DNA from: an uncultured Gammaproteobacteria bacterium
GTDB lineage: Bacteria; Patescibacteriota; Microgenomatia; Daviesbacterales; UBA10151
Assembly (NCBI GenBank): GCA_964392925.1
Contig: CAYMRP010000001.1
Location: 229,585-293,584 of the forward strand
Length of the DNA stretch: 64,000 bases
Reading direction: 5' to 3'
Positions 5,593 to 57,379 of the stretch are shown here, in pieces. The notes under the pieces are model-generated. The model had not been told where the DNA came from. It did no database searches and saw only the letters and a program-made list of their open reading frames with translations. Numbering within the stretch: position 1 is the stretch's first letter; each line of letters starts with the position of its first letter. The translations under genes were made by a program, and so were the position numbers.

Positions 5593-6903
5593 CTATGGAA
5601 GTTTACGAACATTATGCCCCATCTTTTCAGCAATTGCCTCAGCAACTTTTCTTGTTCCATACGGAACTCTAATTGCACCAACCATAACATAACAATCTTC
5701 AGTTAAAGATCCTCGTTTGAGTCTGGGCTCGTATTTGCGTTTACCAACCAAAAGTTTTTTCATCTCTTCGGCAGAGTATGCAAAATCTGATATACAGTTA
5801 TTTGTGTCGTCGAATAGTTTTATGTCAATATCAGGAGCAGGTTCTTGGCTCCATATGTAATACAGGTTTTGCAGAACTCCCCATACCTGATGTTTGTACT
5901 TCACTTTGGACTCGATATCTAACAGATCATATCTCTCACCATTTCCCATTATTAACTCAGAAGATATCCCAACGTGCTTTTCAAAATAATGTAATTCGAG
6001 CGATAATAAATTCTTTTCTTTTTCATATTTAAAGTTTTTCACTTTTAACCATCTTGTTTCTCCAAAGGCTATAGTTCTATGTTCAATCTCGCGTAACTTC
6101 ATTGGTCTAATTTTGCTCAATGCTTTACTAAAGTTGGGATTATTTGCCATGAAAAGCATAACTCCGTTACGCAATATCCAAAGAGTTTTCCTGCATTTAT
6201 CAATCAGTCGGGTGATATCAGTTTGGGTTAGTTCTCGTTTACCTTTGTTTCTGCCAGTATGAGGATCAATATCATGCAAGATAATAGTTTCGTTATCTGT
6301 CAGCTCATATCTATCATGCCCCTCTCCTGCGTTCCTGATTGTGTTATCGAAGCCATCGACAAAGTCTTTCAGATCACCTTGTGGAATCACTAACTTTATG
6401 TCTTTGAGAGTTTGATATTTATTTCCTCCGGCTACTTCAACATACGTATCAGCTGTACTTGCACCTGACTTTTTACCATAACTTGTTACGGCAAAATAAT
6501 ATGGAATTGTTGCCCATAATCTAAACTCACTCTCAAAGAATACTTTATAGTGCCTGAGAGAGGCTGAGAATATCTTGAGGATGTCTTTTTCTTTTTCATT
6601 TCGAGCGTCATAATACTCTTTTTCAGAAATAGCAATTCTCTCGGTAGAATCATGGACTTGATCAAGCATGTAGGAAATTAATTGAGGAAAGTCGTTATGA
6701 TAATTTTTATACAGCTGTTCACAAATATGCTCAACAAAAAGCATGTTTTGAATATCTTTCTTTTTAACTGTGAGTCTCCATGCCAGCCAACTCTGTTCCA
6801 AAAAATAATAGTAATTTTCATGAGGTAGCTCATGCTTCAAATACGGACGGAAAGTGTCTGAGAAAAAACGTTCTTGAATTGCAAATCCTGGTTTACCGAG
6901 CAT
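5593..6903 (-). CDS. Hypothetical 436-aa cytoplasmic protein, operon partner of the AlbA_2 protein (candidate defence-module effector)
   Basis: The ORF is long and clean with no TM segment, no P-loop and no domain I can recognise. It is co-oriented with the AlbA_2 gene and 4 bp downstream of it. Confidence 0.6.
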   Translation of the reverse strand: MLGKPGFAIQERFFSDTFRPYLKHELPHENYYYFLEQSWLAWRLTVKKKDIQNMLFVEHICEQLYKNYHNDFPQLISYMLDQVHDSTERIAISEKEYYDARNEKEKDILKIFSASLRHYKVFFESEFRLWATIPYYFAVTSYGKKSGASTADTYVEVAGGNKYQTLKDIKLVIPQGDLKDFVDGFDNTIRNAGEGHDRYELTDNETIILHDIDPHTGRNKGKRELTQTDITRLIDKCRKTLWILRNGVMLFMANNPNFSKALSKIRPMKLREIEHRTIAFGETRWLKVKNFKYEKEKNLLSLELHYFEKHVGISSELIMGNGERYDLLDIESKVKYKHQVWGVLQNLYYIWSQEPAPDIDIKLFDDTNNCISDFAYSAEEMKKLLVGKRKYEPRLKRGSLTEDCYVMVGAIRVPYGTRKVAEAIAEKMGHNVRKLP

Positions 6904-6908
6904 AATAA

Positions 6909-7868
6909 TTAAACGATTGACTTTGCTTGAGCCACAAGCTCCCTTGCTGTGGGATAATTTTCAAAAAGATAATCCATAGCTTTTACTGCGTTTGCTTCAA
7001 TTTTTTTAGCTCTATCAGCAATGTCATTATTGCCATTAATAATGATCTGTTCCATGTTACTCATTGGTAAAACACTTTGAGCAGAAAGCCTATCTCGTTG
7101 ATCGTCAGCTAACGCTAACTGCTGTCGAAGAGGGAATAGATGTCTCATAAGCTTGACATCATTACCCAATACTCTCAGTAGGTTTCCACTCTCTTTAGAG
7201 ATAATGGAATTGAACTTGTTGGGTAAACTGTTGTTGCTACCTGCCTGTACCATATTCTGTTTGCAAGTTGCTGTCACACTTTCCAAATCCAAATACAGTG
7301 CGTTTACCCAGCCTCTTTCCTCCTTTGACTGATCGATTTCTAATAAAAGATGTGTGTAGTCCATCGCTCTCGCTGTTCCCGATCCACGCGCCCAAAATTC
7401 AAGTGTTGTATCTTGAGCCTTTTTAATTGCATGCGGACGTTTATCGCTCTTGGGGATTTTAACAATAACAACATGTTTGCCTCCTATCTTGATTACTTTA
7501 ATTTCTTCGAAACTGATTATTGGAATTGTTAATCCTTTATCGAGATATTTCTGGGTAATTCTTTTACCAACTTCTTTCGCATCTGTAATTCCAACAATCC
7601 TTTCGAGCTTTGTCTTTCCGGCTGTATTGCTTGCATCTAGAATGCCGAAAAATAAAAATCCTCCAAGAGTATTTGCGAAGGTGGCAAATGCTTTTCTGAT
7701 AGAATAAACTTTATCCGCTTCTAAACTATCAAATCCTTCTTTGAAGTCGAAGTAAAGATCCTCTTCGTTACCATTTATCAGAAGGTCTTTAATGACATCC
7801 TCTGTAATTTCTTCAATTTTTGTATTTTGGTTTATCTGAAGTCCCATAAAGTATGCATATTCTATCAA
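6909..7868 (-). CDS. AlbA_2 (Schlafen-like / divergent-AAA N-terminal DNA-binding) domain protein
   Basis: The N-terminal about 130 aa match the AlbA_2 pattern (EDLYFDFKEGF ... FANTLGGFLFFGILD ... IVGITD). The C-terminal about 180 aa are uncharacterised. The gene lies 145 bp from the 3' end of tRNA-Lys. Confidence 0.65.
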   Translation of the reverse strand: MIEYAYFMGLQINQNTKIEEITEDVIKDLLINGNEEDLYFDFKEGFDSLEADKVYSIRKAFATFANTLGGFLFFGILDASNTAGKTKLERIVGITDAKEVGKRITQKYLDKGLTIPIISFEEIKVIKIGGKHVVIVKIPKSDKRPHAIKKAQDTTLEFWARGSGTARAMDYTHLLLEIDQSKEERGWVNALYLDLESVTATCKQNMVQAGSNNSLPNKFNSIISKESGNLLRVLGNDVKLMRHLFPLRQQLALADDQRDRLSAQSVLPMSNMEQIIINGNNDIADRAKKIEANAVKAMDYLFENYPTARELVAQAKSIV

Positions 7869-8014
7869 AAAAGTTGTGGCCCATCCTGTCGCATATTAAT
7901 TTTGGCAAGTCTGAGAGCCCAGTCAAATTGAACATAACAGCCTTGAGACGCAACTAAAAGCTTGTCGAGCATATGCCGAACGAGATGGATGGCAAGTAGT
8001 TGAAGTTTTAAATT

Positions 8015-8089
8015 TGGTGAGCCGAGTGGGATTCGAACCCACAACCGATGGATTAAGAGTCCATTGCTCTACCGTTGAGCTATCGGCCC
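8015..8089 (-). tRNA. tRNA-Lys (anticodon CTT), CCA encoded
   Basis: The reverse complement folds as a cloverleaf: acceptor GGGCCGA/TCGGCTC, anticodon stem ATGGA/TCCAT with loop CTCTTAA, T-loop GGTTCGAATCC, and a 3' ACCA. Confidence 0.9.
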
Positions 8090-8169
8090 GTTTTCTGCGG
8101 ATACTGATCACACTAAATGTACCCGTCAATAACACAGGTATTATACTCAATCTGAGCTTAGATTTCTAA

Positions 8170-8418
8170 CTAATCCATCCCGCGTCTTCCATCTTCCGCA
8201 TTTTGGACCTCTGCAGCCAGATTTAATTCTTGTGGATGTGCTCCGTCATCACCTTTATAAAGGCCCATGTCATGCGCATTCTCCAGCATATCATCATCAG
8301 ATTCTAAATCAGCTGTATCGCCGTCTATTGCTTCCTCACCTGTTAGCGCAATCTTCTCAACCTCACTATGCTTCTTATCCTCACGTAGATGATCCTTGTC
8401 GCTTTGATTCTTTGCCAT
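8170..8418 (-). CDS. Small highly acidic hypothetical protein (82 aa, D/E-rich, likely disordered)
   Basis: The ORF has a GGGGTGA purine tract upstream of its ATG. The composition is low-complexity acidic. The call is speculative. Confidence 0.3.
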   Translation of the reverse strand: MAKNQSDKDHLREDKKHSEVEKIALTGEEAIDGDTADLESDDDMLENAHDMGLYKGDDGAHPQELNLAAEVQNAEDGRRGMD

Positions 8419-8518
8419 TTTTTAAGTCACCCCATTTCTAAGCCGATATAATTTCTGACCGGATTAACTAGAGTTTAGTACACCCAAATTAATATATCTA
8501 TCCCAAGAATCATTTTTC

Positions 8519-11485
8519 ATGTCTGTTTTCACGAAACTATTGACAACTGTTCAGAATAGTATAAGTATTAGTGAAGTGAATATAAATTCCAAAGGATTTC
8601 TGTCAATTCTTTTAACCATCGGCCTGCTAATAGGTGGAGTCGTCGCTGGAGTATTTATAGTGAATGATCCTACGAATTTCTTTTCTAAAGCTGCTACCCC
8701 CGATATCTCTTTTGAGTCACACTATAATCCTTTCGGAGATCCCTGGTCTCGCAAATTAGCCGCTAACCCTGATATCCCTGTTGCTTTAACTACTGGCTGC
8801 TATAGAAGGGGCCCCAAATATACAGGCAGAGAAACTGACCCATCCGTTGACCAACTTGAAATAGACTATTTGGCCAAGTCAAATTCGCCTATCATCTTTG
8901 AAGAGTGCGCTATCTTGCAGGGTGCCAATTCAGCGCCAACTTCGAACAGACAGCGTTTAATTAATATTGCAACAAAGTTAAAGCAAACTAACCCCAATGT
9001 TAAATACATTGGCTACCATGTCTTCTTTGATGTAAATTTTGACGGTAATTTGGGATCTGATATTTGGGGTGCTGCAGCAAATGATCAAATGTGTGGAAGT
9101 GTAAAATGCGAAACATTCTTTATTCATAAGAAAGGACTTCCGCCGACTAAGGCAAATAGAATTACTGGGGCCAGAACTTTTGATATAACTAATCCTAATT
9201 TTCGAGCATATATAGTTCCTAAAGTAGTTCAGGCTATGAACGAAATGAATATGGATGGCTTTCTAGCAGATGGAGTTGGCCCAACTATTCCCGGTATAAA
9301 TATGGCTGAGGTCCCCGATAATATTGCCTCTAGTTGGGGAGCCGGTTGGGCCGACTTACTTAGAGATACCAAGGCTGCCATGGGTCCAAATAAACTGTTA
9401 TTTGTTAATTCAGGTGGTAGGGGAATCGACTTCACTCGAACTGTACTTTCAAATGAATCCGGCAGCGGCAAACCTCGGGCTGATGGGGTAATGTGGGAAG
9501 ATCCGATGGGAAGTCTCGCAGCTGATCTAGGGTCTTCAGGTCGTCTTAGCGAGCTCAATTCAATGATTAACATGACAACTAGTTTGAATAAGTATTTGAT
9601 GATTGTTGTAAATACTAACGTCAACTGCCAAAACTCCTCAGGCCAGCCCGTTGGTTATTGTTTCAGTCAAACTAACCGCGAAAACGAAAGAAATTTCGCC
9701 CGCTATTATCTAGCCTCATTCCTTAACCTGTATAGGAACAGTAAAACCTTGCTTGTTTATTACACCCCTGTCCAAACCAGCCCTCAATTCGATTCTGAGA
9801 CATTTTTCAGAGAATGGGACTTAAAAATAGGCCAGCCAGTCAGCGGTATGGAGGAGGTTGCTGCTGGGGTTTATCTCAGAAGGTTCCAGAATGGTTATGT
9901 CTACTGGAATAATTCTTATAGTAACTACAATGGTGCCGGTGTTGGACTCTACAATTTAGATGGAACTCCTGCATCCTCTCATTCTGTACCCGCTAAACGA
10001 GGAGTTATATTCGTGACTCAACAAGTTCTACAAGATTGGAATACTGGCTCAGCTTCTCCTTCACCCTCCTCTGTGCCTTCACCTTCTTCAAACACCGGAA
10101 CACCACCTCCTGTTCAAACAGTTGTCACCTCGGCAGTAACCAAACTTGAAAGTACCGCCAAACCTAACTACTTCAACTATTTCTATACTACAAAGCAAAA
10201 CGAAATTGATTTTCTTTTACCAAGAAATTGGAGATCAGTTTCTACCTCTATATTTTACGCACCTAAAGCCGGAACACCAGGTTCTGAACCCGTTTACCGA
10301 ATGTATAAAAATGATTCTGCTAATGGTATTCAAATTCTGACCTGGGCTCTAGACGTAAACGATAGAAACAGAATTAAATCTCTTGGTTTCTCTGAATCAA
10401 ACGACAATGACTTCTTCGCCTACAAAACCAGTCAGCCAAGCAGTATCGGTGTCACCAGGATGAAATATTTTTCTTCTACCTATAATCAAACTTTCTATGA
10501 ATTTGCTAAAAATCAATCCGAAATTACCAGCCTTCAGCAAAAGGGCTGGACTGTCGATACATCAAACGCCTTCTATTTATATAATGTTGCCAATCCAGTC
10601 ATCGTCGTACCATCTCCTAGTGCAACTCCAACACCTACCCCAACGGCAACTCCGACCCCCACACCAACTCCACAAATTAAGCCTAATATTGTACCTTCAA
10701 AATCACTCTCTTATTGCGGAGCTACAGGTGCTATCAATCACTTAGAATGGTTAGCTGTTCCAAACGGTGTCTTTTACAGAATCCTTAGAACCACTCCTGG
10801 GGTAACAGGCAGTGTTAAAGTTGGAGAAACCTCAGGCACTGGACTAAATAATACATATCTAACTTCAGGTACTCAGTATACTTATGTTGTCGAGGCAGAC
10901 GTTACAGGCGGCGCAGTTATTAAGGGTGATGGTTATACAATTGTGGCAGCTGTTTGCTCTACACCAACTCCAACACCAACTCCAACACCAACTCCAACAC
11001 CAACACCAACACCAACCGTAGTTCAAACATCTGTAGTCAAAAAACTCGAACATCAAGCCAGAAGTAATTACTTTGAGACCTTCTTTAGCGCCAAACAAAA
11101 TGAAATTGATTTCCTTAAAAGCCGGGGTTGGTTTGAAGCCGGAATCGCTTTTAGAGCACCTATAGCTGGCACTCCTGGAGTAATAATGGCCAAGAGAATG
11201 TATTTAAGTGATAGTGCTAATGGGGCTCAAATCAGAACTTGGGCAATTAATCAGTCAGATATTGATGATCTAAAAAGTAAAGGCTATCTTCAATCAAATG
11301 ACAGTGATTTCTTTGCCTATCCAACTATGCAAAGCGGCACAGTTGGTGTAACTAGAATGAGAATGTTTTCCTCAAGTTATAACAGGACATTTTATACTTT
11401 CTCAACCAGCTCCGCCCAAACAAACTCACTAGCAAATCAAGGCTGGACAATTGATAAAACAAACGTTTTCTACATATTTCCATAA
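8519..11485 (+). CDS. Giant N-terminally anchored surface protein: putative glycoside-hydrolase-like TIM-barrel region, PT linkers, an FN3-like module and two copies of a novel about 145-aa C-terminal module
   Basis: The TM anchor is SKGFLSILLTIGLLIGGVVAGVF. The hydrolase-like region carries MDGFLADGVGP and FFIHKKG. Linkers are PTPTPTATPTPTPTP. The FN3-like module is bounded by Cys residues (SYCGATG...AAVC). The C-terminal module occurs twice (KPNYFNYF..KQNEIDFL...GVTRM..F...GW) and the protein ends FYIFP. The likely true start is the GTG at 8576, giving MNINSKGF, which matches the paralog's N-terminus. Confidence 0.8.
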   Translation: MSVFTKLLTTVQNSISISEVNINSKGFLSILLTIGLLIGGVVAGVFIVNDPTNFFSKAATPDISFESHYNPFGDPWSRKLAANPDIPVALTTGCYRRGPKYTGRETDPSVDQLEIDYLAKSNSPIIFEECAILQGANSAPTSNRQRLINIATKLKQTNPNVKYIGYHVFFDVNFDGNLGSDIWGAAANDQMCGSVKCETFFIHKKGLPPTKANRITGARTFDITNPNFRAYIVPKVVQAMNEMNMDGFLADGVGPTIPGINMAEVPDNIASSWGAGWADLLRDTKAAMGPNKLLFVNSGGRGIDFTRTVLSNESGSGKPRADGVMWEDPMGSLAADLGSSGRLSELNSMINMTTSLNKYLMIVVNTNVNCQNSSGQPVGYCFSQTNRENERNFARYYLASFLNLYRNSKTLLVYYTPVQTSPQFDSETFFREWDLKIGQPVSGMEEVAAGVYLRRFQNGYVYWNNSYSNYNGAGVGLYNLDGTPASSHSVPAKRGVIFVTQQVLQDWNTGSASPSPSSVPSPSSNTGTPPPVQTVVTSAVTKLESTAKPNYFNYFYTTKQNEIDFLLPRNWRSVSTSIFYAPKAGTPGSEPVYRMYKNDSANGIQILTWALDVNDRNRIKSLGFSESNDNDFFAYKTSQPSSIGVTRMKYFSSTYNQTFYEFAKNQSEITSLQQKGWTVDTSNAFYLYNVANPVIVVPSPSATPTPTPTATPTPTPTPQIKPNIVPSKSLSYCGATGAINHLEWLAVPNGVFYRILRTTPGVTGSVKVGETSGTGLNNTYLTSGTQYTYVVEADVTGGAVIKGDGYTIVAAVCSTPTPTPTPTPTPTPTPTPTVVQTSVVKKLEHQARSNYFETFFSAKQNEIDFLKSRGWFEAGIAFRAPIAGTPGVIMAKRMYLSDSANGAQIRTWAINQSDIDDLKSKGYLQSNDSDFFAYPTMQSGTVGVTRMRMFSSSYNRTFYTFSTSSAQTNSLANQGWTIDKTNVFYIFP

Positions 11486-14400
11486 ATGAATTTAAACTCT
11501 AAAGGCTTTTTATCTATATTCTTGACTATCGCATTGCTGGTTGGGGGAATTGTTGCCGGCACCTATCTAGTTAAGAATCCGAAACTGTTCTTCTCTAAAG
11601 CTGCGGAATCTCCAACTAGTTTCCCTGACTATGTTAAAACCTTCCGTCTCCAAAATCCTAAATCAGAGATGGAAAAGTTCCTTAATCCATTTGGGGAAAC
11701 ATGGGAATCAAAACAATCCACTAATCCAGATATTCCGGCTATGTTAGCCGGTGCATTTGACCGGACAAAAAGCGGCAGCTACGGGATCTCAGATCGGGTA
11801 GCCTCATTTAGTAGATTACTTCCTAGTTATTATCCTAATCAACTCCCTCAGCCAGGTACAAATTATTATTTAGATTTAACTGAAGGCTACAAAAATCTGC
11901 TTCGCAATGCAAATACTCCTTATACTTTTTACAATCAAGGCGGCGGTATTTTCTCTAATCGTCCGCGCTATAACATGCCTTCATCCAATATCGTAATAAG
12001 AGAGCTCGACAAAATTAACCCTAATTTAAAACAGAACAGTTATTACGTAGTAAATTTTGTTGAGGAGACCGATCTTGCAGGTTATGAAAACTTAAAAGAG
12101 CAGTGGTATATTCATCGTAAAGGAACAGATGCATCAAAACCGGAAAACAGATTAAAAGCAGCTGGAGGTCAGGACGTGCTTGATGTAACTATTCCAGAAT
12201 TTCAGCAGCATATGGCAACCGGTGTAGCCAAAGCCATGCAGGACAATCAATTAGATTGGCTTTTAGTTGATGGAGCTGGTGATGGATTAAATAGACCCCG
12301 GCTTCTAAATAGCGAAAGCCCCTCAGTTTATCCGGATCATTTTAATTCTCAAGCTTATTTCACTGGAACTCTCCAAACATTAGGCGCTTTAAAAGCCAAA
12401 CTCAATCCTTTAGGTAAAGAGGTTATTTTTAATCCTATCCAGCCAGATTCTATTGGTGATGAAAGAATAGCTCAAGTCCAAAAATACCTAGAAGTCACTG
12501 ACGGAGCATATTGGGAAAACCCCTTCAGAACTGGAAACCGTGATTACTTTGCCTCTACGAATGGACCAGATTACTATTACACTCAACTGCAGAAGTTTTT
12601 TGATTTGGCCAATTCAATGAACAAAAAACTGATAATTGAATCAGACACTGTTAATGATTATCGCCAGGATCCAAATAATAATTGTCCCTTAGTTTTTCAG
12701 TGTGAATACGCAGAAATTCTGGCAGAAAAAGGATACTATGAAGCACTGGTATATGAACAGAAAATAGCCAGAAGACATCTTGGAATGTATTTGCTTTTTC
12801 AAACCAATCCGTTAACTAATCTCTACTCTCATTACACTTTGGCGGAGCCATTAAGTTACGAAACAAGCGAAGCCACTTTCGCTGATTATGACTTAAAGAT
12901 TGGCAAGCCTTTAGCCAAAATGGAAAAAATAGCTAATAATATTTTTAAACGCCAGTTCGAAAACGGCATAGTTTTCGTAAATTACTCAAAAGCTCCCTAC
13001 ACAATTGCTAGCAATGTTCTGACTTGCGATAACTATAATCAAGGTGTCTGCCAAAAACCCCACTATGTAACCGCTGACGGCCTACCTGTCACAGCTTACA
13101 CATTAGAGCCTGAAACAGCTCAAATATTTGTATTACCAACTGTTCTGACCCCCTATAATCCATCATTTGAAACTGTTTGGAATTGGAAGCCTAATCAGTT
13201 TGAGTGGGGATCAATCGATTACAAAAAAGCTCGTACTGGACGATCATCATTAATGATTCCGCCAAATAGTACCGGCAGTCCCGGCCTAACTCAGTCCTTT
13301 ATTTTCAAGCCTAACACCCAGTATCAATGGAGAGGTTATGTTAAGTCTGACAAGAGTATAAAACCAAACATCACTGTCGCATATGGTCCAGTTGGGACAA
13401 CAGTGGCTTCTCCTGCCAAATCAGTGCCCGTAGCTGGAGGAGTATATGTATACGCTGATAATTTACCTATCGGCACTAACGATTGGCAAGAAGCTAAAAT
13501 AATGTTTTCTACTGGATCTCAAGGGGGATATGGTAATTTCCTTGTCGTAGGAGAAGCTAATAATAGTGGCACAGTTTGGTTTGATGATGTCACCTTATTA
13601 GAAGTCGGCCCTGTCACTCCAACTGTCAGTTTCTCCAGTGCATCAACCTCTACCTATTGTCTAACCCCAACGCAACCCCGGGTTCACTTGCAGTGGAATC
13701 CCATCGGAGGCACTACTTATTATCGGGTTTTCCTAAATAATGCTGATGGAACAAAAACCCAGCTTTATGACGGAGATGGAATAGCTATCAACCTGGATAA
13801 TCTTCAAAGCAACAAGTCATACACATTTTCTCTCGAAGCTAGAACAAATTGGAATGGTACACCGATAGGCTCTGCAGCCACAACGCTCACTACGGCTACT
13901 TGTTCAGCACCCACTCCTACGCCTATAGCCAAGCCTAATGTTATTGCAGCCAAAACTTCCAGTTATTGCAACGGTGCCTCACCAATAATCCATATTGAAT
14001 GGAATTCAATTCCGAATACTGCAATCTACAAAGTTTTTAGATCTACAACAGCTCCGGGCAGTGGTATCAAGGTCGGGGAGACCTCAGGCACCGCTATGAA
14101 TGATACAACTCCTACCTCGGCTACATCCTATACTTATACAATCGAGTCAACATTCTCAAACGGTAGTTTCGTTCAGTCCGATCCATATACGATTCAAGCG
14201 ACCGCCTGCGCAACACCTTCACCATCGACCGCTCCTGTAGTTCAAAAAATAGATGTCAAACGTTTAGATCACTCTGTTAAGCCAAATTATCTTGAGAAAT
14301 TCTTTACCGCAAAACAAAACGAGATAGACTTCTTAAAAAGTAGAGGCTGGAGTGAAGCAGGAATAGCTTTCAAGGCTCCGGTCGCCGGATCCTCAGGTGC

Positions 14401-14704
14401 AATAATGGCCAAAAGATTGAGTCTAACTGACGCGGTCAATGGTGCCCAGATCAGGACTTGGGCCATAAGTTCATCTGAGATAACTGAGTTCAAAAATCTA
14501 GGCTTTGCAGAAGCGGCTGATAGCGATTTTTATGCCTATCCGACTCAGCAACCGGGAACGATCGGTGCAGTTCGTATGAAGCTCTTTAGTGGTACCTATA
14601 ACAAGACATTTTATACTTTCGCTTTTAGCACCACCGAAATCAGTTCACTAACAGCCCAAGGCTGGTCAGTGCAAAAAGCTAACGTTTTCTACATCTTCCC
14701 TTAG
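11486..14704 (+). CDS. Giant paralogous surface protein: GH-like TIM-barrel region, a CBM_4_9-like beta-sandwich, two FN3-like modules and one copy of the novel C-terminal module
   Basis: The start codon immediately follows the stop of the upstream paralog. The N-terminus MNLNSKGFLSIFLTIALLVGGIVAG matches the upstream protein. Shared motifs are WLLVDGAGDG and WYIHRKG. The CBM-like segment carries FETVWNWKPNQFEW...WFDDVTLLEV. The C-terminal module carries KPNYLEKFFTAKQNEIDFLKSRGW and the protein ends FYIFP. Confidence 0.8.
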   Translation: MNLNSKGFLSIFLTIALLVGGIVAGTYLVKNPKLFFSKAAESPTSFPDYVKTFRLQNPKSEMEKFLNPFGETWESKQSTNPDIPAMLAGAFDRTKSGSYGISDRVASFSRLLPSYYPNQLPQPGTNYYLDLTEGYKNLLRNANTPYTFYNQGGGIFSNRPRYNMPSSNIVIRELDKINPNLKQNSYYVVNFVEETDLAGYENLKEQWYIHRKGTDASKPENRLKAAGGQDVLDVTIPEFQQHMATGVAKAMQDNQLDWLLVDGAGDGLNRPRLLNSESPSVYPDHFNSQAYFTGTLQTLGALKAKLNPLGKEVIFNPIQPDSIGDERIAQVQKYLEVTDGAYWENPFRTGNRDYFASTNGPDYYYTQLQKFFDLANSMNKKLIIESDTVNDYRQDPNNNCPLVFQCEYAEILAEKGYYEALVYEQKIARRHLGMYLLFQTNPLTNLYSHYTLAEPLSYETSEATFADYDLKIGKPLAKMEKIANNIFKRQFENGIVFVNYSKAPYTIASNVLTCDNYNQGVCQKPHYVTADGLPVTAYTLEPETAQIFVLPTVLTPYNPSFETVWNWKPNQFEWGSIDYKKARTGRSSLMIPPNSTGSPGLTQSFIFKPNTQYQWRGYVKSDKSIKPNITVAYGPVGTTVASPAKSVPVAGGVYVYADNLPIGTNDWQEAKIMFSTGSQGGYGNFLVVGEANNSGTVWFDDVTLLEVGPVTPTVSFSSASTSTYCLTPTQPRVHLQWNPIGGTTYYRVFLNNADGTKTQLYDGDGIAINLDNLQSNKSYTFSLEARTNWNGTPIGSAATTLTTATCSAPTPTPIAKPNVIAAKTSSYCNGASPIIHIEWNSIPNTAIYKVFRSTTAPGSGIKVGETSGTAMNDTTPTSATSYTYTIESTFSNGSFVQSDPYTIQATACATPSPSTAPVVQKIDVKRLDHSVKPNYLEKFFTAKQNEIDFLKSRGWSEAGIAFKAPVAGSSGAIMAKRLSLTDAVNGAQIRTWAISSSEITEFKNLGFAEAADSDFYAYPTQQPGTIGAVRMKLFSGTYNKTFYTFAFSTTEISSLTAQGWSVQKANVFYIFP

Positions 14705-14719
14705 CATCCTAGTCTCATG

Positions 14720-14792
14720 CGCGCCTAGAGGGAGTCGAACCCCCAACCGTTGGTTCCGAAGACCAATGCTCTATCCATTAAGCTATAGGCGC
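14720..14792 (-). tRNA. tRNA-Arg (anticodon TCG), CCA not encoded
   Basis: The reverse complement reads GCGCCTATAGCTTAATGGATAGAGCATTGGTCTTCGGAACCAACGGTTGGGGGTTCGACTCCCTCTAGGCGCG. The anticodon loop is CTTCGGA and the T-loop is GGTTCGACTCC. Confidence 0.85.
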
Positions 14793-14868
14793 ATATTTGT
14801 ATTTTAACAAAATCTTATAATTATTTCCGAGCAGGTTCATTTTAGAATAATTTACATCTTAAATTGCT

Positions 14869-15456
14869 TTATTTTTTCTTCCCTCCAAACACTAAATTAG
14901 TATAATTCCCCGAGATTCCAATTCCTACATGAGTATATTCAGGATTAACTTGATTCTTATTGTGCCCCGGACTTCGGGCATAAAAATCTTTTATCAGTCC
15001 AGACGCACTTCCTCTAAAATTCCAGCTTTGATTCTCACCTATAGAGTCAAAACCTAGTTTTGAGTAACCATTATTGTTCATAAATTCATCGTGCCCGGCG
15101 TGCTTATCTAATTTCCCAATTCCTTGCAAATACTCAGCTCGATTTTGGGCATAACTCTGAAGTCGATTATCTATAATTAATTCTCCTGCACCATTATTAT
15201 TCCGGTATCCATTAAGCGCCTCAAGTACATCCTGTTTTGTCAAAATATTAGTTTGCGCCGCTTTAACTTTGCCGCGGGCCATCTTGTTAACAGTGGGAGA
15301 GGGGAGTGCTAGATCCGTTGATTCATAAATAACCGGTAGAGTGGATGGTTCAGGGGTTGTCGCAGCGAATACTTGAGTCTTCTGAGCCTCAGGAGTACTT
15401 GAGTTTAGTAATATCTGAGCTTGAATAAATAGTCCCGTAAGTATCTCTTGAATCAT
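14869..15456 (-). CDS. CAP/SCP/PR-1 superfamily protein (YkwD-like), secreted
   Basis: The C-terminal motif GHNKNQVNPEYTHVGIGIS is CAP-domain HxN-like. The N-terminus is hydrophobic with a PS-rich linker. Confidence 0.7.
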   Translation of the reverse strand: MIQEILTGLFIQAQILLNSSTPEAQKTQVFAATTPEPSTLPVIYESTDLALPSPTVNKMARGKVKAAQTNILTKQDVLEALNGYRNNNGAGELIIDNRLQSYAQNRAEYLQGIGKLDKHAGHDEFMNNNGYSKLGFDSIGENQSWNFRGSASGLIKDFYARSPGHNKNQVNPEYTHVGIGISGNYTNLVFGGKKK

Positions 15457-15480
15457 CTTTAATGACCCAACATAACACAG

Positions 15481-15810
15481 CTATTCTATGACTACAAGAT
15501 CATTTTCCCTCAGGTTAAATTTGTCGATAGTCCCATCTTCAAGTTCCAATACTAGGCTGTGCTTAGGATCCCAAAATAAAAATGAATTAGGCTTTAAAGC
15601 CTTTTTGATTTTAACTATTTGATAACTAGAATTTAATATAACTATATCTATTGGCTTTATTAGAAATAGAGTATGTATTCCGAACCGGGTCTCAAACATC
15701 ATATTCCTCGGATTAGAATGTAGAAGCAGTCCAAACATCCGGTCAGTAAAAGAATCCGCCTTCTTTAAATCTTTACATATTGTTTTCTTAACCTGTGATT
15801 TTAATATCAT
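15481..15810 (-). CDS. DUF192 family protein
   Basis: The pattern FTDRMFGLLLHS...MMFETRFGIHTLFLIKPIDIVILN matches DUF192 (COG1430). Confidence 0.65.
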   Translation of the reverse strand: MILKSQVKKTICKDLKKADSFTDRMFGLLLHSNPRNMMFETRFGIHTLFLIKPIDIVILNSSYQIVKIKKALKPNSFLFWDPKHSLVLELEDGTIDKFNLRENDLVVIE

Positions 15811-15884
15811 TTAATAACAATAATAATCTTAATATACCACTTGCGCTTACTTTGTTGTGATGATATTATGCCTGAAGCTTAACT

Positions 15885-16628
15885 ATGGCAACCAAGAAAA
15901 CTACTACAAAAAAAGCTCCTGCTAAGACTAAAGGGGTCGAGCAAAAAGTAAGTTCTCCTAAAAAAGTTTCTCGCAAAAAAGAAACTACAGTAACTTCTTC
16001 AGAGGTCTCGTTCGAAGAGTCAACCCCAAAAACAAAAATCATTACCAAGAAATATATTTATGCAGTCATCGCCGTCCTAATCCTGATCGGTCTCCTGTTC
16101 GCAGCTTCAAGATTTTGGGTAGTAGCCTGGGTTGATAATAAGCCTGTTACTAAATTTGAACTCTATAGTCTTTTAGAAAAAAGAGATCAAGGCAAAACCT
16201 CAGAAGAATTAATAGTTGAAAAGCTTCTTGAATCCGAAGGCCAAAAACAAAAACAAAGTATAAGTGAAGCCGAAGTCGAAGCTGAAGTTAAAAAAGTAGA
16301 AGAACAGCAAGGTGGTAAAGAGCAGCTTGATCAAGTTCTCGCAGCTAACGGCACAACCTACGAAGATTTTCGTAAATTAGTTAAAAGACAGCTCTTAATC
16401 CAGAAATTATTTGGTGCAGAAATAAATATTACAGATGAAGATGTAGCAAAATATATCGAAGAGAACAAACAGGCACTTCCTCCAACAATAACTGAATCCC
16501 CTGAAAGTTCAGAAACAGCTAAATTAAAAGAAAGCGTTAAAGAACAATTAAAATGGACTAAAGTTAGCGAAAATTATTCTAAATGGGTAGAAGAAGCCTT
16601 AAAAAGCCCTCGCGTCATGAAGATCTAA
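15885..16628 (+). CDS. Membrane-anchored SurA N-terminal-domain-like chaperone protein, with a lysine-rich N-terminal tail
   Basis: The N-terminus is K/T-rich and disordered, followed by one TM segment (YIYAVIAVLILIGLLF). The chaperone-like segment carries VAWVDNKPVTKFELYSLLEK and DFRKLVKRQLLIQKLFGAEINITDEDVAKYIEENK. No PPIase domain is present. Confidence 0.6.
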   Translation: MATKKTTTKKAPAKTKGVEQKVSSPKKVSRKKETTVTSSEVSFEESTPKTKIITKKYIYAVIAVLILIGLLFAASRFWVVAWVDNKPVTKFELYSLLEKRDQGKTSEELIVEKLLESEGQKQKQSISEAEVEAEVKKVEEQQGGKEQLDQVLAANGTTYEDFRKLVKRQLLIQKLFGAEINITDEDVAKYIEENKQALPPTITESPESSETAKLKESVKEQLKWTKVSENYSKWVEEALKSPRVMKI

Positions 16629-17712: not shown

Positions 17713-18330
17713 ATGCGTAAATCATTAATCATTTTTCTTATTATTGGCGGTCTAGTAATCGGAATTGGAATTTTTAATAGCTTACTAAATTCCGGAGCAA
17801 TCGAGCTCAAACAGCAAACCATGCAAACCTCGGCTTCGGTACAGACCGAAAACTTAATTAATAACCCAGCACCGGAAGTTCTTAAGCCCGCTGTCTTTTC
17901 AATCCCTGAGCTAGGTTTAGAAAATATCGAAGTTGAATCAGTTGGTCTTGATAAAGATAGTAAAATGGATATCCCCGCAGATGAAAATAATGTTGCCTGG
18001 TATAATTTAGGCTCAAAACCAGGTGAAAGAGGCAATGCTGTAATAGCTGGCCATTTCGATAAGCGAAATGGGGAGCCGGCAGTTTTCTACGATATCAATA
18101 AACTTAAAGCCGGTGATGAAATTAAAGTTAAAGACATCGAGGGTAAAGAATTCACCTATCTAGTCACAGACTCAGTATCATACGAGCTGGCAGAATTCCC
18201 GTTAGTCGAAGTTTTTGGAGCTGGTGATAAAGCCCGCTTAAATCTTATAACTTGTGAGGGATCTTACGATAAGTCATCAAAATTATATTCTCATCGCCTT
18301 GTCGTTTATTCCGAGTTAAAACAAACCTAA
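17713..18330 (+). CDS. Sortase family transpeptidase
   Basis: An N-terminal TM anchor is followed by the catalytic triad motifs in order: NAVIAGH (His), LITCEG (TLxTC Cys) and YSHRLVVY (Arg). Confidence 0.8.
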   Translation: MRKSLIIFLIIGGLVIGIGIFNSLLNSGAIELKQQTMQTSASVQTENLINNPAPEVLKPAVFSIPELGLENIEVESVGLDKDSKMDIPADENNVAWYNLGSKPGERGNAVIAGHFDKRNGEPAVFYDINKLKAGDEIKVKDIEGKEFTYLVTDSVSYELAEFPLVEVFGAGDKARLNLITCEGSYDKSSKLYSHRLVVYSELKQT

Positions 18331-54406: not shown

Positions 54407-57379
54407 CTAAAACCCAAACATTTTCTTGATATTCTTAAAAGTTACTGAAATCCAACCTTCAGATGAATTTGACACAACTGGCACAGTAGGGGATGCTACT
54501 TTAGTAGGGGCAGGCTGGCTATCCTGTGATTGCTTTTGCAAAACTTGTGGATCAAAAACCGTTTCTTCCTTAATATTCTGTTTTATCTTAGCAGGTTGTT
54601 TAGCAGTGCTTGTAAGTGTCGTTGTTAAAGGCTTCTGATTCTTATAGAAGACAGATTTGGTTGCAGGACGTGATGCGGTTCTAATAGCTAATGTTTTCCC
54701 CCAATTCCCAGGAACACATGAATTCATCGCTCGTAATCTAATGTAATAAGTTGTGTTAGGAGATAAATTCCCGATAACAAACCCCGAACCTGATAGCGGT
54801 GCCATAAAGCGGTCTTCATTTTCTTTATACCCATAACCCACCGAATATCCAGAGCTCCCGGCCACCGGAGCAAAATAAATTGTCGCACTGTTGTTTGTTG
54901 TATCTATCTGGAACAAATCCGGAGTTCCTTGAGGTGCCGATGCATTGCAAGAACCTGTATCCGAGTTACCGGAAGAGCTGACTGAAGCAGTCTGAGCACC
55001 GGAATCACTGTTCGCGTTGCTGACATTTAACACCAGAGAATATGTAGATGATAGATTCTGATGGACATCCCTGAAACGAATGTATACGGTCTTAGTTCCC
55101 TGACCGCCGGATAAATTGAAGGTAGGTGAGCCGGAGTACCACTGCCAGTCTGCTCCTATGAAAGATGGATCCTCCGAAATCTGCATTTGTAAATTTGTAG
55201 ATGAATCAAAATTATCGGAAGCTGATACTGCCAGGGTGGCCGTATTCGAATTTATAGTAGTTTGTCCTCCTTGAGCACCCAAGCTTCCAGTTGGAGATGT
55301 GGAATCGTTGCTTGACGGAATTGAAATCGTTTCAGCGTGATTTGCTACTTTATAAAATTCAACATCATCCACATACACAGCATCTCCTGACTCAAATGTA
55401 TGCAGGACATCCAGTCTGACACTGGCAGTTGAAGCAGCTGTTGTTAATTTCATCGTGACATACTTCCAATAGCTTGCTGTTGTATTTATATTTGCAGTAT
55501 TTGTTTGAGCAGAACCATTTGTGATATCAACAAATCTTAATCTGGCAAATGAGCTGCCCGGAGTCTGAACAGTAGTCGCTTTTACCCTGGCATTTATAAA
55601 ATAGTCAGTGTTTGCTTCAAGCGATGGAACCAAATTTCCAGTATAGTTAACATAAACACTGCTCGCTACTCCAGTCAATTTTAAGGACTTTGTGCCGCTA
55701 AAAAACTCAGAGGTGTCTGAAGAGGCTGAGGCTCTCTGCTGCCAATTGGTCGGAAAAGTAGCAACTGTTTCAAATGAAGGGTTCGAAACAATATTCTGAG
55801 CCGATAAGCTTGGACCCACTGGAATTGCACTCGAACAGGCAGTTGTTGTACTAACTGATAAATTTGGATTTCCTGAAGAACCAGGTGTATCTCCATCAGC
55901 AAACTGCCCGCCGGTTGCACAATTGTCACTTAAAGTACTTGGAGAAATTAAATCTTCTCCTCCGTAATCAGTCTCCCAGCCCTCTCTGACAAACAAAGTA
56001 TTGGTATGAGAATAAATCCGGTTTCCACTAACTGTAGCGCTGCCAATCGTGGCGCATTTACCAGCATTATAAGTACTAGCATTATCAGTCGGATTACAAA
56101 CATCTGAAGCCTGATCTATATATGCCAAATAAGTTGCACTCCGTACAATATTATCTATAACCATATTATTGGTGTATTGCAGCTGGGCTATCGACGGTGT
56201 AACACCGCCATACTGCACAATTCTGCTGCTTTTTGGATTCATATAAACCAACTGAGTCACTTTACCGTTCACAAGATTACCTTTGACTAAGCTATCAGCA
56301 GCCATCATGCTAATAGCGTTATAACTTGAGGCCTCTTTACCTTCAAAGGTATTTTTATAATTCACTACATACTGAGCCACTCCCCATTCGTTCTCATCAA
56401 CATCGCCATCGCCGTCCCTATCGCGGGTAAAATCATCATTTGTTAGATAAAGAAGCCCTCCATTGACAGTTTTTTTACTAATCGAGGAATAGATGATTCC
56501 ACCACCATGAAGACCATCCAGATAAGAATGATATTCTTCTTTCCCATCAAAAGTGCAACCTCTACACCAAAAATTTGTCAGTGTAGCAATGCCGTACAAA
56601 CTCCCATCATGTGTTCCAATTCCAGTGCCGGAAGTATTTCTAATAGTTATCCTATCCAGCACGACATCCCTGGCTGTTGCTAAATGAACCAAAATATGGG
56701 AAGTCGCATTTCCGTCAAAAATAATATCTTTTAAATAGATATTCTTAATAGGATTCTGAATACAGTGGTTCGATTTCTCATGAAGGTCGCTTGCCGGATT
56801 TCGTGCTCCGGAAAAACCTGTATAGTCAGCTGACTCAGGGCAACCCAGGATTTCAAATTCTTCACGATCTGCCCAATCATCTTCATAATCTTGTGCTGTA
56901 GCATAAGCATGACTTACCTGAAGTATTGTTCCACCGCCTGAATCACCAATAAAATGAATATTATCCCGCTTTAATGTTTGAGTAAAAATCCCTCCGGATT
57001 CAGAATAATCATTTGTTAGATGGACATCTCCACAATAAGTTCCGGCGGATAGTTGTAAGGTATAACCTTTAGTTGGAATAGTCGGCAAGGCATCTAAAGC
57101 ATCCTGAATGCTGGTCCCGCTGCCGCATCCGCCGTCAGGAGCTACCTCAATAACTGTTGGAGGATTTGGCACATATCCGATAGAATATCCGGATGCATTA
57201 TCCGGATTCAAGGGATGACTGTTCCACCAGGTCTCAACATCCTGAGAGTAATTAGGATCTGTGGAAGGAATTCCAGGATCATCCGCTCTTACTATCTCAG
57301 CTGTAAAAGAGCAGCTAACTGAAAGAATCATCAAATAAATAACAATGAATAATTTTTTGTAGAATTGTAAAGTGCGCAT
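54407..57379 (-). CDS. Large secreted protein: right-handed parallel beta-helix (pectin-lyase-fold-like) region, a CBM_4_9-like carbohydrate-binding module and a C-terminal Cys-bracketed FN3 module
   Basis: A signal peptide is present. The central region is beta-helix-like (ISMMAADSLVKGNLVNG..IVQYGG, NNMVIDNIV). The CBM-like segment carries NIVSNPSFE...VYVDDVEFYKV. The FN3 segment carries APQGTPDLFQIDTTNNS...NTTYYIRLRAMNSC. Confidence 0.7.
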   Translation of the reverse strand: MRTLQFYKKLFIVIYLMILSVSCSFTAEIVRADDPGIPSTDPNYSQDVETWWNSHPLNPDNASGYSIGYVPNPPTVIEVAPDGGCGSGTSIQDALDALPTIPTKGYTLQLSAGTYCGDVHLTNDYSESGGIFTQTLKRDNIHFIGDSGGGTILQVSHAYATAQDYEDDWADREEFEILGCPESADYTGFSGARNPASDLHEKSNHCIQNPIKNIYLKDIIFDGNATSHILVHLATARDVVLDRITIRNTSGTGIGTHDGSLYGIATLTNFWCRGCTFDGKEEYHSYLDGLHGGGIIYSSISKKTVNGGLLYLTNDDFTRDRDGDGDVDENEWGVAQYVVNYKNTFEGKEASSYNAISMMAADSLVKGNLVNGKVTQLVYMNPKSSRIVQYGGVTPSIAQLQYTNNMVIDNIVRSATYLAYIDQASDVCNPTDNASTYNAGKCATIGSATVSGNRIYSHTNTLFVREGWETDYGGEDLISPSTLSDNCATGGQFADGDTPGSSGNPNLSVSTTTACSSAIPVGPSLSAQNIVSNPSFETVATFPTNWQQRASASSDTSEFFSGTKSLKLTGVASSVYVNYTGNLVPSLEANTDYFINARVKATTVQTPGSSFARLRFVDITNGSAQTNTANINTTASYWKYVTMKLTTAASTASVRLDVLHTFESGDAVYVDDVEFYKVANHAETISIPSSNDSTSPTGSLGAQGGQTTINSNTATLAVSASDNFDSSTNLQMQISEDPSFIGADWQWYSGSPTFNLSGGQGTKTVYIRFRDVHQNLSSTYSLVLNVSNANSDSGAQTASVSSSGNSDTGSCNASAPQGTPDLFQIDTTNNSATIYFAPVAGSSGYSVGYGYKENEDRFMAPLSGSGFVIGNLSPNTTYYIRLRAMNSCVPGNWGKTLAIRTASRPATKSVFYKNQKPLTTTLTSTAKQPAKIKQNIKEETVFDPQVLQKQSQDSQPAPTKVASPTVPVVSNSSEGWISVTFKNIKKMFGF

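Follow-up and report, generated by a model that had tools for sequence, protein, structure and literature searches.

Among the described systems closest to the genes considered here are the fucanases of glycoside hydrolase (GH) family 168 and the proteins that carry a C-terminal DUF5648 domain. The active site of GH168 has been described in the numbering of WfGH168_II, with D172 as nucleophile, E243 as acid/base, Y99 and N101 binding the 2-O-sulfate at subsite −1, and N218 also listed (PMC12534559, PMC11685898, PMC12210190); K66, preceded by E65, forms a strictly conserved "polar knuckle" at the −1/−2 subsites that is described as essential (PMC12534559). The Pfam family GHL15 (PF14885), to which we relate GH168 below, belonged to Naumoff's hypothetical GH families (cited in PMC5765458). 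DUF5648 (PF18885) was described as having a (β3α)3 arrangement in an AlphaFold survey of GH70 enzymes, of which it is an auxiliary domain and before which no three-dimensional structure of it had been described (PMC11299179). It also forms, as a three-bladed β-α propeller, the C-terminal domain of the Bacteroidales pore-forming toxins BSAP-2 and BSAP-3; from the O-antigen targets of these toxins the authors inferred that DUF5648 recognises glycans (10.1101/2025.01.06.631476). A GH25 endolysin carries it at the C-terminus as well (10.64898/2026.04.26.720912). In the 64 kb stretch of contig CAYMRP010000001.1 analysed here (the window), two + strand open reading frames (ORFs), named P1 and P2, join a GHL15/GH168-like domain to DUF5648 modules. 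Judged by sequence, the pair combines known parts in a new way, the function of DUF5648 being deduced and not demonstrated. We put at about 0.6 the probability that P1 and P2 are co-transcribed, exported multi-domain glycoside hydrolases with glycan-binding DUF5648 modules. Labels such as L001 and P0001 denote related loci and proteins.

The gene pair and its catalytic domains

The P1 ORF spans 8519..11485 (+ strand, 988 aa in the ORF list) and the P2 gene 11486..14704 (+ strand, 1072 aa), and the TAA stop codon of P1 is followed directly by the ATG of P2 with 0 nt in between. The initial annotation had called the two genes abutting tandem paralogs, and this description holds: BLASTP yields two principal blocks, one over the N-terminal ~580 aa (29% identity, E 1e-42) and one over the C-terminal 275 aa (52% identity, E 9e-95), all motifs quoted for them are found in the translations, and tblastn of sub-regions against the whole window gives exactly two occurrences of the hydrolase-like region. 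The abutting arrangement is conserved. The closest relative, P0001, is 87% identical to P1 in protein sequence and lies on a 542-kb wastewater metagenome contig (L001), where the same abutting pair occupies 10001-12946 and 12947-16165 and the P2 ortholog likewise has 1072 aa; upstream of it a tRNA-Lys and an 82-aa ORF are syntenic with the window, and the wider flanks differ. Because the P2 ATG abuts the P1 stop codon, the two genes are probably co-transcribed. A promoter and terminator scan of 7900-15000 gave nothing above shuffled expectation, and the only matches in an Rfam scan were four tRNAs.

The same ortholog bears on where translation of P1 begins. Given that ATG 8519 is not kept in L001, which has ATA there (L001 9910-10003 compared with window 8519-8578), and that an in-frame TAA lies in L001 directly 5' of the GTG equivalent to window 8576, with the spacer DNA 93% identical, P1 most likely starts at GTG 8576. 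By this comparison the gene would extend over 8576..11485 (+ strand) and encode 969 aa, not the 988 of the mechanical ORF from ATG 8519. Read from 8576, P1 begins with MNINSKGFLSI, as compared with MNINSNGFLSI in P0001 and MNLNSKGFLSI in P2.

Each protein carries one GHL15-type catalytic domain. In P1 it covers aa 64-509 (8708..10045, + strand) and consists of a (β/α)8 barrel with a C-terminal β-sandwich; GHL15 matches it at E 3.6e-18 and 66.9 bits over aa 155-459 (profile positions 1-270 of 271), the whole-protein gathering cut-off of this family being 27 bits. The P2 domain (aa 60-556; 11663..13153, + strand) represents a divergent subtype, which scores 32.4 bits and is 29% identical to that of P1. 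The GH-like TIM barrel of a GHL family that had been guessed at in the initial annotation is thus confirmed, and Pfam GH114 matches neither P1 nor P2. Because fragments of GH168 crystal chains, taken from HMMER alignments, score on PF14885 (180.5 bits for 9jom and 47.7 bits for 9joc), Pfam GHL15 includes, on sequence scoring, the retaining endo-α-1,3-L-fucanases of CAZy family GH168, which form its characterised branch; PDB entry 9nhf, a GH168, carries the name "GHL15 protein". An AlphaFold2 (AF2) model of P1 residues 20-518, built from a 15-sequence alignment (predicted local distance difference test, pLDDT, 82.9; predicted template modelling score, pTM, 0.82), contains eight strand/helix alternations and terminal β-strands. 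When this model was searched against PDB with Foldseek, the 17 best matches were all GH168 fucanases (E 1e-14 to 2e-11, template modelling score ~0.7 on target), and GH13, GH66, Cwp19 (GHL10) and GH5 barrels followed far below. A family profile searched against PDB sequences reached GH168 at E 2e-6 to 7e-8.

Active-site residues were mapped from the HMMER alignment of the family profile to 9joc, which is a sequence-profile alignment and not a superposition. Because the chain numbering of 9joc reproduces the published R43, K66, Y99, N101, W106, D172, K176, N218, R221 and E243, the equivalences can be read directly. D172 corresponds to P1 D251 and P2 D262, E243 to P1 E327 and P2 E344, and Y99 to P1 Y166 and P2 Y186, these three columns being invariant in the 15 homologs of the conservation alignment (32-91% identity); N218, corresponding to P1 N297 and P2 N316, is nearly conserved. 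The predicted nucleophile of P1, Asp251 (9269..9271, + strand), stands in MDGFLAD at the end of β4 and also aligns with D184 of PbFucA and D152 of Rho5174, and its predicted acid/base, Glu327 (9497..9499, + strand), stands in DGVMWEDP at the end of β6 and aligns with E254 of PbFucA. In the AF2 model of P1 the two residues are located where strands 228-232 and 304-308 (numbers of the model) end. Their P2 counterparts lie at 12269..12271 (D262, predicted nucleophile) and 12515..12517 (E344, predicted acid/base), both on the + strand. Alignments to PbFucA, Rho5174, Fun168A and Fun168E give the same Asp/Glu equivalences (PMC11685898, PMC12534559). Conserved catalytic acids, whose lack would have refuted the initial annotation, are accordingly present. 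One could still suppose that the barrels are catalytically dead and that P1 and P2 act purely as adhesins, which they resemble in size, repeated binding modules and spacer layout. However, both carboxylates and several further active-site positions are invariant in homologs down to 32% identity, with both paralogs included, which indicates selection for catalysis and leaves a dead-enzyme adhesin highly improbable.

Two positions of the GH168 site are replaced. K66 corresponds to E129 in P1, N150 in P2 and D or G in other homologs, with the L-E-K motif of GH168 aligning with F-E-E in P1 and F-Y-N in P2, and N101 is replaced by an invariant Val (P1 V168, P2 V188). It might be argued that P1 and P2 are nevertheless true GH168 endo-α-1,3-L-fucanases degrading sulfated fucans or fucoidan, given that GH168 fucanases supply all of their best matches in structure and sequence, that the Pfam model is shared and that the catalytic pair persists together with Y99 and, nearly so, N218. 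This proposal has to contend with the loss of K66 and of the 2-O-sulfate-binding N101 (PMC12534559), with an identity of 15-18%, with a closest relative from a wastewater metagenome and not from a marine habitat, and with the lack of any sulfatases or fucosidases seen in the window, and we regard it as very unlikely. Our reading of the alignments is that the catalytic machinery would be intact and under selection and that the part of the −1/−2 subsites recognising sulfated fucose differs. P1 and P2 are probably active retaining glycanases, and because the two GH168 residues gripping the sulfated sugar are replaced, their substrate is probably something other than 2-O-sulfated fucan. They are best classed, as far as alignment can tell, as distant GHL15 members with GH168-like mechanics, not as demonstrable GH168 fucanases.

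By the same sequence comparisons, the catalytic domains of P1 and P2 are old paralogs. A 482-aa Hyphomicrobiales protein (31% identity) is similar to that of P1, and a Henriciella protein (26% identity) has subtype-specific motifs in common with P2. A recent local whole-gene duplication was ruled out, the catalytic domains being 29% identical and each resembling a different distant homolog, and so, from a DNA identity of only 68% between the C-terminal cassettes, was their recent gene conversion. The Henriciella marina protein is a P2-type GHL15 homolog without accessory modules, and its gene lies inside a capsule/exopolysaccharide (EPS) locus (L008 1463-16812), together with an ABC-2 transporter, GT1, a hexapeptide acetyltransferase, Capsule_synth, a cytidylyltransferase, GT2 and CysNC (sulfate activation). 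From such a locus there is a hint that the polysaccharide processed by some GHL15 members is self-made and possibly sulfated. Hydrolases of EPS loci include GH166 PelA, PgaB, GH114 Ega3 and GH135 Sph3, and P1 and P2 could likewise act on the capsule or exopolysaccharide of their own producer, trimming or processing it as happens in Pel, PNAG and galactosaminogalactan loci, with the position of the Henriciella homolog speaking for it. However, the window pair lies outside any polysaccharide-synthesis locus, the Henriciella protein is only 26% identical and has neither linkers nor binding modules, and long spacer arms with distal lectin-like modules would fit outward reach better than the processing of a nascent chain. 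We consider this explanation unlikely.

Terminal helix, spacers and DUF5648 modules

As had been noted earlier, P1 and P2 each have one strongly hydrophobic segment, which is N-terminal; in P1 it is the sole segment with a Kyte-Doolittle 19-mer mean >1.6. The putative export signal or anchor of P1 (8576..8695, + strand) comprises NSKGF, a 22-residue hydrophobic helix at aa 27-48 and a conserved FFSKAA, and that of P2 (11486..11605, + strand) comprises MNLNSKGF, a hydrophobic helix at aa 8-29 and FFSKAA. The AF2 model of P1 places a helix at 5-30, and the N-terminal motif is common to the homologs. A pilin-type signal was considered and is unsupported: in the class III pattern G|F-x-x-x-E, K-G-F does precede the helix, but position +5 is Leu and not Glu, and no NCBIfam prepilin domain matched at E<=1. 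Sortase anchoring of the pair was ruled out by the lack of an LPXTG-type sorting signal near the C-terminus of either protein, both of which end in FYIFP. The general N-terminal pattern is (N/S)(Q/S)KG(F/I/V)(A/L), a hydrophobic helix of ~22 residues and, ~10 residues further on, F-x-(P/S)-K-A. It recurs on otherwise unrelated exported proteins, apparently of the same lineage (P0010-P0012, P0014, P0017, P0019-P0021), and the shared K-G-F/helix/F-x-P-K-A motif may, by this distribution, be a lineage-specific signal for export, sorting or processing.

Between the catalytic domain and the C-terminus lie spacer units. P1 has one Cys-bracketed FN3/Ig-like unit (aa 723-813, C733...C813; 10685..10957, + strand), which is 44% identical to unit 2 of P2 and has no Pfam match of its own; by sequence composition it is flanked by P/T-rich linkers at 10586-10684 and 10958-11017 (+ strand). 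The linker at 10958-11017, a (PT)n stretch before the last DUF5648 of P1, differs in length from that of the 87%-identical P0001, being a simple repeat prone to expansion and contraction. P2 has two Cys-bracketed FN3/Ig-like units (13628..14209, + strand; aa 715-806 with C725/C806 and aa 807-908 with C828/C908), and fn3 matches its unit 1 at E 0.0011, which is sub-threshold (best fn3 score 19.6 bits, cut-off 25). The initial annotation had assigned FN3-like units and long (PT)n linkers to each protein; the Cys-bracketed units stand, and the long (PT)n linkers are confined to P1 (aa 711-718 and 814-832), P2 having short P/T/S stretches only. Beyond the P1 layout, P2 has an extra region of ~160 aa (aa 557-714; 13154..13627, + strand), for which a CBM4/9-like jelly-roll is a weak assignment (CBM_4_9 E 2.6e-4, 21.8 bits against a cut-off of 25.9) and which gave no sequence match in PDB.

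Both proteins carry a module of ~150 aa, of which tblastn finds exactly 3 copies in the whole 64 kb window, two in P1 and one in P2 as previously described, with pairwise identities of 47-61% (E 1e-45 to 1e-68) that lie far outside what chance would produce. The initial annotation regarded this module as novel and unassignable to a known cell-wall-binding or anchoring family. This view is overturned by Pfam: with each copy scanned alone against the 134-position DUF5648 profile, all three exceed the gathering score of 25 bits, with coverage of about positions 6-131. Copy A of P1 (aa 541-689; 10139..10585, + strand) scores 42.1 bits over positions 8-131 and is 47-52% identical to the other two; copy B of P1 (aa 834-988; 11018..11482, + strand), which forms the C-terminus and ends in FYIFP, scores 38.1 bits and is 61% identical to the P2 copy; and the P2 module (aa 917-1072; 14234..14701, + strand), likewise C-terminal and ending in FYIFP, scores 37.0 bits. 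The whole-protein E-values for DUF5648 are 8.9e-18 for P1 and 1.7e-9 for P2. A word-index homolog search with one module copy returned no match and was replaced by an exhaustive profile search with HMMER over 1.84 billion representative proteins, which retrieved 335 relatives at E<=1e-3. In the reverse test, 88 of the 91 module-profile matches scanned hit PF18885 at E<=1e-5. In the retrieved DUF5648 proteins, the partner domains belong to extracellular or cell-wall enzymes or are adhesin repeats. Because only 8 of the representatives score below E 1e-30 with the module profile, the window copies appear by sequence to be a small divergent DUF5648 subfamily.

The consensus of the retrieved DUF5648 proteins consists of three repeats of PVYRLYNP..G.HFYT....E...L...GW..EG..FY, and the window modules align to it in blades 1 and 3, with blade 2 weak or degenerate. 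AlphaFold modelling, which had been proposed along with the initial annotation, revealed a β-β-α-β pattern in blades 2 and 3, but the AF2 model, based on a 5-sequence alignment, was poor (pLDDT 54.5). A Foldseek search of PDB with it gave no match below E 0.6 and was discarded as uninformative. No solved relative of the module was found in PDB by single-sequence or profile search. Given the quality of the model, the putative three-blade fold of the window copies is derived from their Pfam match and internal repeat pattern.

A comparison with homologs 61-65% identical in the barrel showed what can change at this end of the protein. The N-terminal helix, barrel and Cys-bracketed FN3-like unit are retained in these homologs, and the sister proteins among them (P0003-P0009 and P0011-P0013; L003-L006) have a type I dockerin at the C-terminus and not DUF5648 (26 bits, cut-off 22.9). 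This C-terminal part of the sister GHL15 proteins is a type I dockerin-like double Ca-binding repeat (GDIDNNGRVDIFDFN...). In P0002 and P0010, the C-terminus is one DUF5648. Because the same catalytic domain thus carries dockerin in the place of DUF5648, the C-terminus can be read from these sequences as a swappable slot for localisation or binding. The close DUF5648 subfamily is also C-terminal to weakly matched carbohydrate-esterase-like and glycosidase-like regions, and it occurs in small proteins made of an N-terminal helix, FN3 and DUF5648 without an enzyme (P0019-P0021). Because these helix-FN3-DUF5648 proteins exist, DUF5648 would have a binding function of its own, and a binding or attachment role of the C-terminal module, as suggested in the initial annotation, is reasonable.

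The mechanism that we propose for P1 and P2 combines these elements. The N-terminal hydrophobic helix would act as export signal or membrane anchor, leaving the protein membrane-held or released, and the (β/α)8 GHL15 barrel would cleave a polysaccharide by retaining double displacement, with the Asp at the end of β4 (P1 D251, P2 D262) as nucleophile and the Glu at the end of β6 (P1 E327, P2 E344) as acid/base. Pro/Thr/Ser linkers and Ig/FN3-like units would serve as spacers, with a possible CBM4/9-like unit in P2, and the distal DUF5648 modules, two in P1 and one in P2, would be lectin-like and hold the enzyme on a glycan as carbohydrate-binding modules do. The bound glycan could be the substrate polymer or the surface polysaccharide of another cell. 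Binding to a target polymer or a foreign surface is favoured because enzyme-less helix-FN3-DUF5648 proteins exist.

A serious alternative is that DUF5648 is a non-covalent anchor to the producer's own wall or surface glycopolymer, like LysM, SLH and choline-binding repeats, so that the N-terminal helix would be a cleaved signal peptide and the enzymes would sit on their own envelope. The module is strictly C-terminal and is exchanged in homologs for dockerin, itself an anchoring module; elsewhere DUF5648 accompanies YkuD, Amidase_2, polysaccharide deacetylase and choline-binding repeats, and it is found on a GH25 endolysin (10.64898/2026.04.26.720912). The conserved F-x-(P/S)-K-A after the helix could be a processing site, and the lack of LPXTG excludes attachment by sortase. 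By contrast, P0019-P0021 would then have no working part, the DUF5648-bearing BSAP toxins target the O-antigen of other cells, and the putative cleavage site, ~10 residues past the helix and often with Pro at −3, looks atypical for signal peptidase I. We regard an own-surface anchor as possible, with a chance clearly below even.

Several points count against our preferred reading of exported hydrolases with glycan-binding modules. The replacement of the K66 and N101 equivalents means that the GH168 substrate is not transferable to P1 and P2, and the P1 model is only 15-18% identical to the GH168 structures. Glycan binding by DUF5648 is deduced in the literature and has never been directly measured, the direct binding experiments having concerned BSAP-1, which has another kind of C-terminal domain (10.1101/2025.01.06.631476), and the AF2 model of the module itself is poor. 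The dockerin swap is at least as compatible with attachment to the producer's surface as with targeting of the substrate, and the neighbouring genes in the window show no link to sugar uptake or a polysaccharide pathway. A more specific version of the preferred reading, which we consider doubtful, is that the P1- and P2-type barrels are new GHL15/GH168 specificities outside sulfated fucan, used by a small-genome, possibly episymbiotic bacterium to cut the surface polysaccharide of a host or neighbour, with DUF5648 as receptor-binding heads that select the target cell, as proposed for BSAP-2 and BSAP-3.

Genes around the pair

The pair lies between two tRNA genes, both predicted by ARAGORN and Rfam. 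The tRNA-Lys(CTT) at 8015..8089 (− strand) marks the upstream border of the conserved block of tRNA, 82-aa ORF, P1 and P2 and is also upstream in L001, and the tRNA-Arg(TCG) at 14719..14792 (− strand) lies directly downstream of P2; no tRNA-Arg was found downstream of the P2 ortholog in the examined part of L001. Neighbouring genes in the window encode Schlafen/AlbA_2, DUF1697, CAP, DUF192, a SurA-like protein, PAP2, a sortase and an ABC transporter, and PPDK, pyruvate kinase and an epimerase are encoded farther away. The sortase gene (17713-18330) is 3 kb downstream, yet P1 and P2 have no LPXTG-type signal. The exact P2 sequence gave no record when looked up in the indexed public assemblies.

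Beyond the tRNA-Lys, the − strand of 5593-7868 encodes the Schlafen/AlbA_2 protein (6909-7868) and a 436-aa protein without a Pfam match (5593-6903). The equivalent stretch of L001 has no called gene with Schlafen/AlbA_2 domains or of these sizes, and 5593-7868 looks like a tRNA-adjacent variable island, possibly for defence. Downstream of the P2 ortholog, L001 16367-22946 contains PLDc_2, an HTH protein, a SMODS/AGS_C nucleotidyltransferase (CBASS-like), an M23 peptidase and type IV secretion genes of TraC/PrgI-like kind; the window has none of them at the equivalent place, where the tRNA-Arg follows P2. Farther off, a 990-aa ORF (54407-57379, − strand) has no Pfam match at E<=1e-3, and beside it (57530-59176, + strand) is a surface protein with Laminin_G_3, fn3 and LysM; by tblastn both are unrelated to the P1/P2 family.

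Comparison with described systems

What is new about the pair is modest: a divergent non-marine GHL15 clade without the residues that recognise sulfate, the joining of this clade to one or two DUF5648 modules that are swappable with dockerin, and a conserved tandem of old paralogs. Should the enzymes prove active, the recently characterised GHL15/GH168 family would reach into this clade, which could yield a new glycanase specificity. The pair also illustrates cleanly, in nature, the use of DUF5648 as a C-terminal module that can be exchanged for dockerin and that occurs twice in one protein; this supports the emerging view that DUF5648 binds glycans or targets surfaces, and constructs for testing that view can be taken from the pair. 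The two genes should be annotated as GHL15/GH168-like glycoside hydrolases with DUF5648 and not as carriers of a new domain.

Among TIM-barrel hydrolases, the GH114, GH166 and GH135 enzymes of EPS loci have a distantly related barrel with a DG-x-x-x-D motif, several GH168 chains in PDB are labelled "GH114 TIM-barrel domain-containing" by their depositors, and the Henriciella homolog lies in a capsule locus. P1 and P2 differ from these enzymes in having no Pfam GH114 match and in lying outside an EPS locus. The dockerin-bearing, cellulosome-type glycoside hydrolases are matched by the sister proteins, whereas P1 and P2 themselves have no dockerin. In BSAP-2 and BSAP-3, GH70 α-glucanotransferases and the GH25 enterococcal endolysin, DUF5648 is likewise a C-terminal accessory domain of ~135 aa on secreted proteins that act on glycans or cell surfaces, and these domains share with the window modules three repeats of ~45 aa with the pattern R...T....E...L...GW...F-Y. 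The window copies differ as a small divergent subfamily with a degenerate blade 2, and neither the pairing of DUF5648 with GHL15 nor its duplication within a protein is mentioned in the DUF5648 literature cited here.

The GH168 fucanases (Fun168A/D/E, PbFucA, Rho5174, MeGH168) belong to the same Pfam family as P1 and P2 and have the same (β/α)8 barrel with a C-terminal β-sandwich. The positions of the Asp nucleophile (β4) and the Glu acid/base (β6) are the same, the Y99 equivalent is kept and that of N218 nearly so, and the motifs D-I/L-T/S-N-P-x-F/Y-R, DG-hhh-D, L-A-A/S-F-L and W/F-x-x-x-D-L/K-x-I/L-G-x-P are shared. By contrast, P1 and P2 have other residues in place of the polar-knuckle Lys and the sulfate-binding Asn, and the identity is only 15-18%. 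Whereas the characterised GH168 enzymes are secreted proteins of ~350-420 aa from marine Bacteroidota, Planctomycetota and Verrucomicrobiota, P1 and P2 place the barrel behind an N-terminal helix and continue for ~500 aa with linkers, Ig-like units and DUF5648 modules.

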